Positions 44,556 through 51,300 of a stretch of DNA of 64,000 nucleotides are shown here, one piece after another (the first letter of the stretch is position 1; every line of letters begins with the position of its first letter). Below the pieces are notes generated by a model, which had not been told where the DNA came from, did no database searches, and worked only from the letters and a program-made list of their open reading frames with translations. Location: assembly GCA_037443365.1 (NCBI GenBank), contig JBBIOM010000001.1, positions 97,693 to 161,692 on the forward strand, in the 5' to 3' direction. The translations under genes were made by a program, and so were the position numbers. The DNA comes from Armatimonadota bacterium. Its GTDB lineage: Bacteria; Sysuimicrobiota; Sysuimicrobiia; Sysuimicrobiales; Humicultoraceae.

Positions 44556-45518
44556 GTGGCTGAGACGGCGGCAACGCAGACAACGGTTCTCTCGTACGGA
44601 TTGGGACCCATAGGAGCCGGCATCGCGGGACTGGCGCTCGACCGCGGGTACCGGATTGTCTCGGCGGTCGACATATCGCCCGACAAGGCCGGGAGCGACC
44701 TGGGCGTCCTGCTGGGACGCGCGAGACTTGGGGTGACGGTGACCGCTGATGTCGCCGCGGCCCTTGCCTGCAAGCCCAGGGTCGTCCTGCACTCAACCCA
44801 ATCGCACATCCCGCAGGTCATGCCCCAGCTCATGGCGTGCATCGAGGCAGGCGCCTGCGTCGTCTCCACATGCGAAGAGCTGGCGTTCCCGTGGTACCGT
44901 CACGACCACGAGGCCAGGCGCCTCGACGCGGCCGCGAAGGCCCACGGCGTCACGATCGTGGGCGTGGGCGTGAACCCCGGATTCGTGATGGACCTGCTGC
45001 CCATCGTGCTAACGGCGCCCTGCCGCAAGGTGCGCGCCATCCGCGTCACGCGCGTGGTGGATGCGGGGTTGCGCCGCAAGCCCCTCCAGCAGAAGGTGGG
45101 CGACGGCCTCGACCGGGCCACCTTTGAGAAGGGTGTCGCGGAAGGCCGAATGGGGCACGTGGGGCTGCCCGAGTCCGTGGCGATGATCGCCGATGCCCTG
45201 GGATGGCCGCTCGACTCAATCGAGGAGACGATCGAGCCGGTCATGGAGGGAGCCACGGTGCGCGGCCTGCACCAGGTGGCGAACGGCCTGCAGAGCAAGG
45301 AACCGGTCATCTCGCTGGACCTGACCATGGCCGTGGGCGCGGCGAATCCGCGGGACTCGGTGACAATCGAAGGCGAGCCGCCCATCGCCCTGACCGTGTC
45401 CGGAGGCATTCACGGCGACGTCGCAACGTGCGCGATATCGGTGAACGCTATCCCGATGGTGCTGGCGTCGCCCCCAGGCCTGACCGCGCCCCACCGCCTA
45501 CCTGCGATCCATCGCTGA
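44556..45518 (+). CDS. 2,4-diaminopentanoate dehydrogenase/dihydrodipicolinate reductase-like oxidoreductase
   Basis: YGLGPIG, STCEEL, GVNPGFVMD, GHVGLPES, GDVAT; upstream TTGGCC-17-TACAAT (44481-44509). Confidence 0.78.
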   Translation: MAETAATQTTVLSYGLGPIGAGIAGLALDRGYRIVSAVDISPDKAGSDLGVLLGRARLGVTVTADVAAALACKPRVVLHSTQSHIPQVMPQLMACIEAGACVVSTCEELAFPWYRHDHEARRLDAAAKAHGVTIVGVGVNPGFVMDLLPIVLTAPCRKVRAIRVTRVVDAGLRRKPLQQKVGDGLDRATFEKGVAEGRMGHVGLPESVAMIADALGWPLDSIEETIEPVMEGATVRGLHQVANGLQSKEPVISLDLTMAVGAANPRDSVTIEGEPPIALTVSGGIHGDVATCAISVNAIPMVLASPPGLTAPHRLPAIHR

Positions 45519-46397
45519 TCGGGCGGCGGCTCGCAGAGCGCGTGCGCCCAGGTTGATGAGGTAGGCACCATCGGTCCCGGGCACCGGTAGGAGGTTCCAG
45601 GCAACGCGCAGGAGCGCCGCGGCGGCAAGCAGCGCCGCGGCCTCTCTTTGCGCCGGCAGAGCCAGCCCGGCAATGAGGGCTACTGAACCCACCGCGGCAT
45701 CGCAGAGCGGCCCCCAGGCAGCGATCCTTGCCCGCGCGCGAGGGGGCAGGAGCGCGGCGCCGGCGAGGTGCACGCGGAATCCGATGCTCCAGGGGGCGGC
45801 CTCCACCACGAGCGCGGCCGCGCGGGCGCCCGCGGTCAGCGCCGCAGCGGCGTGGGCCATCTCGTGGGTAAGCCCAAGGATCCAGACCAGGAACGCCAGC
45901 GCCAGCAGGCGCGACACCTCTGGCTCCGAGTAGAGAGCGCGAAGCCAGCCAGCGTGCTGTGCGCCCAAGACCGCGCCCGCAACCAGCAGCGCGGCAACCC
46001 CGAAAGCCCGCACCCATGCCGGAATCCTGTGCAGCAACCGGCAGAGCGGCAGCATAGCGGCCGCGTTGGCGATGACCACTCGTGACGAGAAGGGCCTGAG
46101 CACTTGCGGCGCCTCGGCGCCGCAGGACACCAGACCAGCATCGACCAGACGTCTCACGAACCGCGCCACGTCCGCCGCGTCCAGTCGCGGCGCCGCCCCG
46201 GCCACATCGCGCGACAGCTCTTCGAGCCCGCGCGTACCGTCCATCAGGGCCAGCAAGGACGCCTCGGGCTCGCCCGCCTGGAAGCAGCGCCCCCCGGAGG
46301 CGTGGACGATCCAGCGCGCACCCCCCTGCCCCCCGACTTCCCTGGTGACGCGCACGCCCGGGAGCAGGCACGGTCGCGCCTGGCTCAGGTCGTCCAC
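45498..46397 (-). CDS. RRE/PqqD-like domain fused to M50 (site-2) metallopeptidase
   Basis: N-terminal LLALMDGTR...VARFVRRLVDAGLV; C-terminal HEMAH, AWGP, NLLPVPGTDG among TM segments. Start estimated at GTG 46397. Confidence 0.75.
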   Translation of the reverse strand: MDDLSQARPCLLPGVRVTREVGGQGGARWIVHASGGRCFQAGEPEASLLALMDGTRGLEELSRDVAGAAPRLDAADVARFVRRLVDAGLVSCGAEAPQVLRPFSSRVVIANAAAMLPLCRLLHRIPAWVRAFGVAALLVAGAVLGAQHAGWLRALYSEPEVSRLLALAFLVWILGLTHEMAHAAAALTAGARAAALVVEAAPWSIGFRVHLAGAALLPPRARARIAAWGPLCDAAVGSVALIAGLALPAQREAAALLAAAALLRVAWNLLPVPGTDGAYLINLGARALRAAARSAMDRR

Positions 46398-47110
46398 CTG
46401 AACCGCCGCACGGATACAACTGCTCCGATCAGTCCCCACAGCGCCAGCACCCCCAACTCGGTGACGACCGAGGACGCGTCCCCACCGCGGGCGGCCGCCC
46501 TGAGCCCGCGCAAGAAGTATGTCAGCGGAAGCGCGCCGGAGAGGCGCGCCAGCGCGGCGGGCAGCATCTCTACCGGGAAGTAGGCGCCACTCAGGAACGT
46601 CATGGGGAAGAACAGGAAGGCGGCGATCGAGTTCGCGGCCTCGACCGAGCGCGCCAGGACGCCCACCGCGAACCCGGTAGCCAGGAAGGCTGGTACGCCT
46701 ACGCACATGACCGCCGCGAGCGTACCCGGCCGAGCAGAGAACCGGACGTCGAAGAGCCCCGCTCCTATGGCCAGCAGCTCCACGCCCACGGCGAGCACAA
46801 CCGCCCCGCGCACCAGCATCTGAGCCAGTACGAGCTGCCAGGCCGGGATCGGGACGAGGACCAGGCGCTTGAGGAACCCGCTGCTGCGGTAGTGGGTCAC
46901 GACCACACCGATGCTGTAGTAGGCCGTGGATGCCAGCACCATCCCGAGCACGCCCGGGACAAGAAAGACCATCTGCCCGGGTTCGCGCGCGAACACGCTG
47001 CCCAGCAGCACCAGCAGGAAGGCCGGAAAGAAGAAGGTCCAGAAGGCGGCCTGCGGCGTGCGCCAGAACAGCCTGGCCTCCATCAGGACGAGGCGCCACA
47101 AGCCCGTCAT
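46385..47110 (-). CDS. ABC-2 type exporter permease
   Basis: FWTFFFP, LKRL, FLSGAYFP, LPLTY; about six TM helices. Confidence 0.9.
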   Translation of the reverse strand: MTGLWRLVLMEARLFWRTPQAAFWTFFFPAFLLVLLGSVFAREPGQMVFLVPGVLGMVLASTAYYSIGVVVTHYRSSGFLKRLVLVPIPAWQLVLAQMLVRGAVVLAVGVELLAIGAGLFDVRFSARPGTLAAVMCVGVPAFLATGFAVGVLARSVEAANSIAAFLFFPMTFLSGAYFPVEMLPAALARLSGALPLTYFLRGLRAAARGGDASSVVTELGVLALWGLIGAVVSVRRFRWTT

Positions 47111-47844
47111 GTCGGTCCTCCTGGGAGCGGGGAATCCTGGGTCAGTTCCAGGAAGGTTTCTTCGAGCCCGCCGCGGCCAGCACGCGCCAGCGCTGCCACG
47201 GTGCCCTGCGCGAGTACCCTGCCGCGGTGGATGATGGCCACCCTGTCGCACAGCGACTCGGCCTCGTCCAGGTGATGCGTGGCCAGAAGCACGGTGCGCC
47301 CGCATGCCCGCGCCTCGTGAATGAGATCCCAGAGATCCCGGCGCGCGTGCGCATCGAGCCCTGCCGTGGGCTCGTCCAGGATCAGGAGCTCGGGATCTCC
47401 GACCAGGGCCAGCGCCAGCAGGAACCGTCGCCGCTGCCCGCCTGAGAGCTGGCCGTACATGGCCGCCGAACGGTCGCCCAGACCTGTCCGGGCGAGCAGC
47501 CGGTGCGCCTCGATACGGCGCGGGTAGAAACCCCCGAGGAACTCCAGCGCCTCCCCCAGGCGCAGGTAAGGGTGGAAGACCGCCTCCTGCAGCTGCACGC
47601 CTATGCGCCGCCGCAGGCCCAGCGCCCCGCCCCGAGGATCGAGCCCCAGCACACGCGCCCGGCCCGCATCAGGGCGCTGCAGCCCCACCAGTATCTCGAT
47701 GGTCGTGGTCTTGCCGGCGCCGTTGCGCCCCAGGAGCCCGAATACCTCGCCTTCCTTGACCTCCAGGTCAAGCCCGTCCAGAGCCACGACGCTGCCGTAC
47801 CGCCTGCGCAGGCCTTCCACCTCGATTGCCAGCGCGTCAGGCAT
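47107..47844 (-). CDS. ABC exporter ATP-binding protein
   Basis: GRNGAGKT, LSGGQ, LILDEPTAGLD, THHLDEAE. Confidence 0.93.
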   Translation of the reverse strand: MPDALAIEVEGLRRRYGSVVALDGLDLEVKEGEVFGLLGRNGAGKTTTIEILVGLQRPDAGRARVLGLDPRGGALGLRRRIGVQLQEAVFHPYLRLGEALEFLGGFYPRRIEAHRLLARTGLGDRSAAMYGQLSGGQRRRFLLALALVGDPELLILDEPTAGLDAHARRDLWDLIHEARACGRTVLLATHHLDEAESLCDRVAIIHRGRVLAQGTVAALARAGRGGLEETFLELTQDSPLPGGPT

Positions 47845-51041: not shown

Positions 51042-51080
51042 GGGGGCGGCCGCCGGCAGCGATGGCACCCCGCCGCCCCC
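51042..51080 (-). promoter_or_regulatory. GC-rich stem-loop after the precursor gene
   Basis: GGGGGCGGC (51042-51050) / GCCGCCCCC (51072-51080) inverted repeat, no U tract. Confidence 0.5.
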
Positions 51081-51094
51081 GTGGGCTGGGCGAC

Positions 51095-51220
51095 CTACAT
51101 GTTCTCGCCGCCGCCACCACCGCCGCCGCTGCAGCAGCAGCAACAACAACACGCGATGATGATGTCACCGCCGCGGTCGAACAGGGTCATGCTCTCGAGC
51201 TCGACAATCTGCAGTTCCAC
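51095..51220 (-). CDS. RiPP precursor peptide, 41 aa: MELQIVELESMTLFDRGGDIIIACCCCCCCSGGGGGGGENM
   Basis: Manual translation GTG 51220 to TAG 51095; strong SD GGAGGTGA at 51227-51234; first gene of the C/YcaO/SagB operon. Confidence 0.9.
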   Translation of the reverse strand: MELQIVELESMTLFDRGGDIIIACCCCCCCSGGGGGGGENM

Positions 51221-51300
51221 TGTGGTTCACCTCCCCCGGCGCCGGGATGCGCGCCAGAGCAACCAGGGGGCGCCCGGCCCGCGGTCCGCCCGTTCTATCG

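Follow-up and report, generated by a model that had tools for sequence, protein, structure and literature searches.

A putative seven-gene azol(in)e peptide locus with a poly-cysteine precursor and a daptide-like leader peptidase candidate in an Armatimonadota bacterium

The operon and its precursor peptide

The DNA analysed here is a 64,000-nt stretch of contig JBBIOM010000001.1 from an Armatimonadota bacterium (the window, to whose positions all coordinates refer). Between 45498 and 51237 of the minus strand it holds seven tightly packed, intact open reading frames (ORFs) in the order precursor, C, D, B, ATPase, permease, protease, which we read as a putative operon for a linear azol(in)e peptide (LAP), i.e. 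a thiazole/oxazole-modified microcin (TOMM) and thus a peptide that is produced on ribosomes and modified after translation (RiPP). An initial annotation of the same DNA had described a minus-strand operon comprising a precursor, an E1-like C protein, a YcaO protein, a SagB-type dehydrogenase, an ATPase, a permease and a protease, and these gene identities and their order are borne out here. The G+C content is ∼70% throughout the window. Start codons were refined by means of Shine-Dalgarno sites and homolog alignments, resulting in the following features:

51228-51237, minus strand: Shine-Dalgarno sequence of the precursor gene, G-rich with a GGAGGTG core, 7 nt 5' of the GTG start
51095-51220, minus strand: precursor peptide gene, 41 aa (ORF with homologous ORFs in related loci)
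49992-50966, minus strand: C protein, 324 aa, E1-like partner that binds the leader for the cyclodehydratase (TIGR03882, ThiF)
48676-50010, minus strand: YcaO cyclodehydratase (D protein), 444 aa, with C-terminal PxPxP (PF02624, TIGR03604)
47837-48664, minus strand: SagB-type FMN dehydrogenase (B protein), 275 aa, ATG at 48664 (TIGR03605, PF00881)
47107-47844, minus strand: ABC transporter ATPase, 245 aa (PF00005)
46385-47110, minus strand: ABC-2 type permease, 241 aa (PF01061)
45498-46397, minus strand: leader peptidase candidate, RiPP recognition element (RRE) plus site-2 protease, 299 aa (NF041824, motifs, AlphaFold2 model)

The genes are closely spaced or overlapping, as had been stated before. 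The C and D genes share 19 nt, 11 nt separate D from B, and the remaining junctions overlap by 8 nt (B/ATPase), 4 nt (ATPase/permease) and 13 nt (permease/protease). The sole exception to these overlaps of 4-19 nt and the 11-nt gap is a spacer of 128 nt between the precursor gene and the C gene. The ATPase start is preceded by a GAGGAGG Shine-Dalgarno sequence and the permease start by AGGAGGA, the latter with an ATGA overlap with the ATPase stop.

The precursor has the sequence MELQIVELESMTLFDRGGDIIIACCCCCCCSGGGGGGGENM, with a leader that carries ELESMTLF and a core in which seven contiguous cysteines (C24-C30) are followed by Ser31, seven glycines and Glu-Asn-Met. For the comparison with related genomes, G000 denotes the source genome, while G001, G002, G003, G006 and G007 belong to the same genus and G020 to another genus. 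A short ORF with a run of six to eight cysteines was found upstream of the C gene in all seven related loci that were extended, which bears out the poly-Cys precursor of the initial annotation: homologous precursor ORFs precede the same genes in G002, G006, G003, G001, G020 and G007, and a divergent one does so in G009. The run is kept at seven or eight cysteines in the six relatives whose YcaO proteins are 58-77% identical to that of the window, and it comprises six cysteines in G009, where YcaO is 35% identical. In four of the same-genus relatives (G002, G006, G003 and G007) the sequence GAGGAGGTGA lies 5' of the ATG start of the precursor gene.

Codon comparison in ten pairs from five same-genus genomes revealed 2-5 synonymous and 0-1 non-synonymous differences per pair over 16 leader codons, and 0-5 synonymous and no non-synonymous differences over the seven Cys codons. 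The peptide is under purifying selection, and the 41-aa ORF is genuine and not a chance frame, because it has a strong Shine-Dalgarno sequence, recurs upstream of the same genes and changes near-exclusively at synonymous positions. In one relative with a YcaO of only 63% identity the precursor is nevertheless 97% identical over the matched part, so that the constraint on the peptide equals or exceeds that on the enzymes.

An alignment of seven precursors shows M1, L3, E7, L8, E9, L13, F14, D15, G18, C24-C30, G32 and G33 as invariant. The leader is followed by a variable stretch of 5-10 residues that ends with Ala or Gly before the Cys run, and after the seven or eight cysteines there is one variable residue (S, N, Y or I) and then at least two glycines, usually as part of a longer tract. 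The heterocyclisable runs thus measure 7-9 residues (C7S, C7 or C8). The C-terminus is conserved as acidic and hydrophobic, Met-rich sequence, with Met as the last residue in six of the seven precursors and Phe in the seventh. In the G001 homolog nine leader residues are unreadable, since 27 bases of its ORF (L014, about 870-900) are given as N.

The initial annotation had called the precursor hidden, and this fits the databases: in a collection of 5.8 billion proteins the peptide search retrieved a single relative, of 42 aa, so gene callers mostly miss it. One further site of six consecutive TGY codons, the only other one in the genome, was considered as a second precursor (G000:C15:41222-41239, L100) and was ruled out, as its Cys frame is closed by nearby stops. 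Read in its real frame, the site encodes a Leu run beside NLLPLPALDGG and belongs to a gene for an RseP-like site-2 protease, so the genome also encodes an ordinary protease of this kind.

Azole-forming enzymes, exporter and protease

The C protein scores 64.4 bits on TIGR03882 (cut-off 36.9), matches ThiF weakly (25 bits vs 28.1, E 1.2e-5) and reaches only 32.7 bits on the SagC-subfamily model TIGR03603, whose cut-off is 187.65. Its alignments cover the N-terminal, RRE/E1-like region of TruD (E 4.9e-8) and of LynD, and it also matches ThiF and MoeB. The YcaO protein was recognized by PF02624 (218.7 bits) and by the SagD-type model TIGR03604 (262.2 bits vs a cut-off of 219.25), and its residues 17-431 align to LynD (E 7.3e-20) and TruD (E 2.5e-19). 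As the C protein thus corresponds to the N-terminal region of LynD and TruD, and YcaO to their C-terminal YcaO domain, C and D together equal a split heterocyclase, which supports an ATP-dependent cyclodehydration of Cys followed by an FMN-dependent oxidation. The dehydrogenase for the latter step scores 109.9 bits on TIGR03605 (cut-off 78.4) and 65 bits on PF00881; its start was chosen by a Shine-Dalgarno site and the beginning of the homolog alignments. Cyclodehydration and oxidation are established for these families, and from family membership we infer the same azole chemistry for the cluster.

In an alignment of 17 YcaO sequences E90, E93, E202 and E205 are invariant. The protein ends with HPHPFP, of which P440-H441-P442-F443-P444 is likewise invariant, in line with the C-terminal PxP noted earlier, and PxPxP has been described as a motif of azoline-forming YcaO proteins (10.1101/2025.07.11.664356). 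The transporter consists of one ATPase (PF00005, 94.3 bits; best NCBIfam match the DrrA subfamily, below its cut-off) and one permease (PF01061, 88.2 bits).

For the protein encoded by the last gene the only NCBIfam match was NF041824 (daptide_HExxH; 63.9 bits, E 1.4e-17), while the Pfam families M50 and M50B matched weakly (E 0.004-0.006). Its ortholog in G020 passes PF02163 (28.1 bits vs 27.2). A HMMER scan of 1.84 billion representative proteins yielded 38 relatives at E <= 0.001, six of them at E <= 1e-10, and of 24 aligned relatives 19 match PF02163 and 3 match PqqD at E <= 0.01. In the alignment of 24 relatives H178-E179-x-x-H182 (HExxH) and D276-G277 of an NLxPxxxxDG motif are invariant; the window protein reads NLLPVPGTDG at the NxxPxxxxDG motif, whose Asp (D276) we take to be the third zinc ligand. 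A pairwise search against the sequences of the Protein Data Bank (PDB) gave nothing meaningful (best E 0.15).

The AlphaFold2 model of the protein (mean predicted local distance difference test score, pLDDT, 86.9; predicted template modelling score, pTM, 0.76) has two parts. Residues 1-93 comprise strands at 16-20, 28-32 and 38-41 followed by three helices, and residues from about 103 to 299 form a helical membrane domain. With VIA-align the first part could be superimposed on TbiB1 (Z 9.8, root mean square deviation, rmsd, 2.6, 83 residues aligned), a lasso B1 protein (Z 9.6, rmsd 2.5, 81 aligned) and PqqD (Z 9.4, rmsd 2.4, 88 aligned); with ThcOx included, the RRE comparisons span Z 9.4-9.9, rmsd 2.4-2.6 and 81-88 residues. 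The second part matched the site-2 protease of M. jannaschii (3b4r; Z 10.4, rmsd 4.0, 145 aligned), RseP (Z 10.3, rmsd 3.8, 142 aligned) and SpoIVFB (Z 10.3, rmsd 4.6, 137 aligned). The RRE/M50 nature that the initial annotation had ascribed to this gene holds once the fold matches are taken together with the site-2-protease motifs: as modelled, the protein is an RRE (a PqqD-like winged helix, ∼1-93) fused to a site-2, M50-like intramembrane metalloprotease (∼103-299).

A predicted complex of the protease with the precursor scored 0.35, compared to 0.01 for the best of three controls, which is a weak signal. Of 80 solved complexes 58 attained the mark for such scores, as did 2 of 110 mismatched pairs, and only 7 of the 80 solved complexes, together with both of the passing mismatches, passed it with scores of at most 0.60. 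The prediction runs agree in at least 39% of the contacts, and the partner has a pLDDT of at least 40.

Relation to daptides, proposed pathway and alternatives

The only NCBIfam model that matches the protease, below its cut-off, is that of the daptide peptidases. The leader peptidases of daptides are reported as RRE-fused site-2 proteases; daptide precursors carry ELExMEAP and end in an invariant Thr, and MpaP has been proposed for leader removal (10.1101/2023.03.08.531785). Cleavage of daptides is placed after ELExxxxx (10.1101/2025.07.11.664356). For a direct comparison we used two loci with a protease above the NF041824 cut-off, taken from 301 Actinomycetota genomes that were searched, of which 45 match this model at E <= 1e-30. 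The short ORFs of both loci end in Thr and carry ELE...EAP, and one of the loci has the order methyltransferase, class-III aminotransferase, iron-type alcohol dehydrogenase (Fe-ADH), precursors, ABC ATPase, ABC-2 permease, protease. The last three genes of this locus are in the same order as in the window. The window protease is 28% identical to the daptide protease (DapP) of this locus over 193 aa that span the RRE and HExxH (BLASTP E 1e-6), the two proteases are alike in their two-domain build, and identity between the ATPases is 35%. In the daptide leaders ELE-x-M/V stands at the same distance from a conserved boundary as it does in the window precursor, with ELESMTLF and the invariant Asp. 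Judged by sequence, the protease is homologous to DapP and has the same build, but it is not an equivalog according to the curated score.

The cluster itself is not a daptide cluster, because it lacks a precursor with C-terminal Thr and genes of the DapB, C, D or M type. Daptide precursors end in Thr, whereas six of the seven members of the window family end in Met and one in Phe, and the DUF-RRE protein, Fe-ADH, class-III aminotransferase and methyltransferase of daptide clusters are not among the seven ORFs, although the daptide locus used for comparison has every one of them. The aminotransferase nearest to the cluster is of class I/II and lies beyond a convergent gene. Unlike daptide clusters, the window cluster has the full C-D-B azole set as its modifying enzymes.

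We consider the locus a functional LAP (TOMM) operon that makes a poly-thiazole peptide on a daptide-like set of leader, exporter and peptidase, and assign this reading a probability of about 0.7. We propose that the conserved leader at the N-terminus of the precursor (residues 1-14, ...ELESMTLF) serves for its binding, and that the E1-like C protein together with the ATP-dependent YcaO would cyclodehydrate C24-C30, possibly also Ser31, to thiazolines, which the SagB-type flavoprotein would then oxidise to thiazoles. The expected product is an uninterrupted run of ∼7 thiazoles (∼-140 Da) that leads into an acidic, flexible tail rich in Gly. Processing and export would fall to a module of the last three genes: the protease would capture the same leader with its N-terminal RRE and remove it at the membrane, and the product would leave the cell via the ABC-2 transporter. 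In analogy to daptides, which are cut five residues past ELE, cleavage may occur after Phe14, so that the mature peptide would start with Asp15. As for its activity, an exported antibacterial or membrane-active peptide is our guess.

Several results weigh against this reading. The protease score on NF041824 is far below the cut-off (63.9 vs 300), and the window protease also falls short of the Pfam cut-offs for M50 (PF02163, 17 bits vs 27.2) and PqqD (15.5 vs 23.4). Winged-helix domains from outside the RiPP field match its N-terminal domain with scores as high as those of the RREs or higher, the top one being 8hkr (Z 11.6), and Z values of ∼10 for the membrane domain can reflect a common helical-bundle arrangement and are not decisive alone. 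A Foldseek search with the protease model returned no match at E <= 0.001; its top rows were RRE domains (PqqD, the PbtF RRE, lasso B1 proteins, LynD and TruD), followed by the M. jannaschii site-2 protease and SpoIVFB. No pairwise similarity was detected between the daptide and window permeases (E 0.16). A hidden Markov model of five daptide leaders from the two loci put the precursor ORF at the top of the 1,238 stop-to-stop segments from the whole window, but the match is weak (8.5 bits, E 0.13; next segment E 1.3) and the model was run after the resemblance had been noticed. The G020 precursor has one extra residue between ELE and LFD, so a strict rule of ELE plus five places the cut at differing bonds among the members. 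Finally, G009 has A, C, D, B and the transporter, and no protease homolog was detectable there.

The last point would also fit a different role for the protease: an azole peptide is made, and the RRE-site-2 protease cuts elsewhere, trims the C-terminus or serves immunity or regulation, while an unlinked protease removes the leader. It might, for instance, cut directly before the Cys run, after the residue that is always Ala or Gly, or trim the acidic, Met-rich tail in the manner of M50 proteases from pearlin pathways; the precursor C-terminus is conserved as acidic and hydrophobic or Met residues, and for the M50 proteases TglG and TmoG a carboxypeptidase activity towards RiPP scaffolds is described (PMC10885120). 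Moreover, a cluster of Lysinibacillus with a similar leader has an M16 peptidase instead. We nevertheless regard such a role as unlikely, as the RRE fusion points to leader recognition, the closest family is that of the daptide leader peptidases, and conservation within the peptide breaks off roughly at the cut expected from the daptide rule. Another conceivable product is mainly metal-binding, as a metallophore or as a detoxifying chelator rich in thiols and thiazolines, with a Cys conversion that is incomplete or halted at the thiazoline. Thiazoline-containing natural products can chelate metals, and the composition of the precursor, with seven or eight adjacent cysteines that are flanked on either side by acidic residues, speaks for this option. 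Composition is, however, its whole support, and the SagB-type dehydrogenase, which is conserved in every copy of the cluster, argues for oxidation to azoles; the transporter is of the ABC-2 exporter type, and neither the cluster nor its surroundings showed an uptake receptor, a metal-responsive regulator or a metal transporter, which makes a chelator quite improbable.

That the locus encodes a streptolysin S-type cytolysin in a divergent host appears highly improbable, despite shared features. Clusters of the streptolysin S and propionisin type share with the window the discrete E1-like C protein, the SagD-type YcaO with PxPxP, the SagB dehydrogenase, an ABC exporter in the operon and a short precursor whose heterocyclisable residues follow a small residue without interruption. 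Their gene order differs: the sag operon is arranged A-B-C-D, and the window order is A-C-D-B. The cytolysin and propionisin design, as outlined in PMC4603692, combines a contiguous heterocyclisable run after a small residue with C, D, B and an ABC transporter; for the streptolysin S-type cytolysins the same source gives a CaaX-like protease and a Gly followed by at least 10 contiguous heterocyclisable residues. In contrast, the runs of the window family comprise 7-9 residues, as pure Cys7-8 before a Gly tract, and the leader is of another type. None of the seven ORFs contains a CaaX-type Pfam domain at E <= 0.01, in agreement with the initial annotation, which had stressed the absence of a SagE-type CAAX protease. 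Instead of the three-component SagG/H/I transporter there are two components, with only 25.4 bits on the SagH model NF038293 (cut-off 450). The nearest named relatives of the window YcaO are Streptomyces fusion proteins of ∼30% identity.

Cyanobactin heterocyclases LynD and TruD are the closest solved structures by sequence, at E values of only 1e-8 to 1e-20. They are fused proteins, whereas C and YcaO are separate in the window, and the cluster has neither PatA/PatG-type proteases nor macrocyclisation signals. Plantazolicin and microcin B17 are linear peptides with fused azole runs, as is likewise predicted here, but their cores mix Cys, Ser and Thr; microcin B17 also has Gly-rich regions. 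Plantazolicin A is termed a 'linear decacyclic' product in the abstract of its report. The microcin B17 leader is removed via TldD/E (M103), and a 2023 review names the M103 proteases TldD/E for LAPs, with pearlins and epipeptides as the only classes for which it gives M50 proteases (PMC10885120).

The initial annotation had stated that the architecture matches no characterized cluster. In the literature searched we found no characterized counterpart of the cluster and, with supplementary tables outside its scope, no described homopolymeric-Cys LAP and no LAP with an RRE-site-2 protease as peptidase. This part of the claim stands, while the RRE-site-2 peptidase has a precedent in the daptides, whose leader the one here also resembles. 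The novelty of a poly-Cys precursor is also narrower than assumed, as uncharacterized C-D-B clusters elsewhere have comparable runs. A Cys12 ORF lies just upstream of C-D-B in a Bacillota metagenome-assembled genome (MAG; L020:4489-4650, plus strand; YcaO ∼37% identical to that of the window), and precursor-like ORFs with Cys7 and Cys6 lie beside C-D-B in a Longimicrobium MAG (L022:2517-2732, plus strand) and a Chloroflexi MAG (L028:320-499, plus strand), both with leaders unlike that of the window. In the TOMM cluster of Lysinibacillus xylanilyticus (L021:4492-4596, plus strand) the leader, …IIELNEGMRLFD…, resembles that of the window and the core is of a mixed Cys4 type; an M16 (insulinase-type) peptidase takes the place of the RRE-site-2 protease (L021:8188-9444, plus strand).

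The cluster is a new combination of known parts and a well-defined lead for heterologous expression, not a new principle. Every part comes from a known family, and routine genome mining would therefore probably pick up the locus as a LAP cluster. New is the conserved homopolymeric Cys7-8 core, which, if fully processed, would rank among the longest all-thiazole stretches without interruption that are predicted for ribosomal peptides; such a scaffold would be rigid and conjugated, with an activity that is not guessable from characterized LAPs. Also new is the pairing of a daptide-like leader and RRE-site-2 protease with azole chemistry, which suggests that pairs of leader and peptidase move between RiPP classes and provides a candidate for a dedicated leader peptidase in a class whose leader removal has often resisted explanation. 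The host belongs to an uncultured clade of a little-known phylum that has hardly been explored for natural products. More tentatively, and at somewhat less than even odds, the leader, the ABC exporter and the RRE-site-2 protease could represent a portable set for leader recognition, export and trimming that is common to two chemically unrelated RiPP classes, one with the C-terminal amine chemistry of daptides and one with a C-D-B azole synthetase, which here would give a hepta- to octa-thiazole rod with a Gly tail. If so, ELE-type leaders and RRE-site-2 protease genes could be used to mine further unrecognised RiPP classes, the peptidase could become a general tool for leader removal, and the small clade would produce a so far undescribed type of product.

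Twelve further Actinomycetota loci (L124-L135) carry DapP-like genes for RRE-site-2 proteases with ∼157-180 bits on NF041824, below the cut-off. Motif scans found no daptide or ELE-type short ORF near these genes, and the window YcaO gave no match there; the genes may serve other, unrecognised peptide classes. A daptide locus of genome G150 encodes a YcaO ∼31% identical to that of the window (L122:4694-5731, minus strand), which fits published tailoring enzymes of the DapY type.

Distribution and genomic neighbourhood

YcaO homologs occur in 10 of 41 related genomes, G000 counted: in all seven other genomes of the genus and in one genome of each of two other genera of the family. The protease gene was found in 8 of 94 genomes of the phylum (G000 included), namely six of the seven other genus members and one of six genomes of genus g5. 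The full order A-C-D-B-ATPase-permease-protease recurs in G002, G006 and G003 of the same genus and in G020.

In a large protein collection 15 relatives of YcaO were found at >=56% identity, all of them metagenomic, and the next match had 35%; outside this small metagenomic clade the window YcaO is at most 38% identical to any protein. Fourteen of the 15 relatives are without a name, and one carries the JGI label ribosomal protein S12 methylthiotransferase accessory factor. For one relative with 76% identity the longer cluster member is an NCBI hypothetical protein from an 'Armatimonadetes bacterium' MAG. An alignment-based YcaO scan of 185,579 species genomes retrieved C-D-B neighbourhoods from many phyla with <=38% identity, and the only close locus was one of the same genus, on the contig of G007. 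The single-protein YcaO contig scan had given 138 pattern matches, none of them a relative. When the protease was compared by tblastn with 80 loci from the YcaO scan, no homolog was obtained; one short match (L019) lies inside the C-protein gene of that locus.

We place the boundaries of the cluster at seven genes, because the order recurs in G002, G006, G003 and G020, the ComF-like neighbour was not found at the G020 locus, and the flanking genes have housekeeping functions. Upstream on the same strand a ComF-like phosphoribosyltransferase gene is followed by one for adenosylhomocysteinase; downstream there are a convergent gene similar to that of 2,4-diaminopentanoate dehydrogenase and the class I/II aminotransferase gene.

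Scanning of 45000-52200 for regulatory elements gave no promoter-like sites and four terminator-like sites compared to 2.6 expected, which is uninformative, and no Rfam family matched in 44000-53000. Within the spacer between precursor and C gene a 9-bp stem of G and C only (51035-51080, minus strand) could modulate read-through into the enzyme genes; the spacer as a whole folds no better than shuffled sequences (z 0.03; 87 of 200 shuffles fold equally well).

The gene directly upstream (51301-52047, minus strand) encodes a ComF/GntX-like phosphoribosyltransferase with a double zinc ribbon. It is syntenic in G002, G006, G003, G001 and G007, was not found beside the G020 cluster and is probably just a neighbour. 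The convergent gene at 44520-45518 on the plus strand scores 235.8 bits on NF040740, below the cut-off of 400; this 2,4-diaminopentanoate dehydrogenase-like gene hints at ornithine or amino-acid fermentation in the organism.

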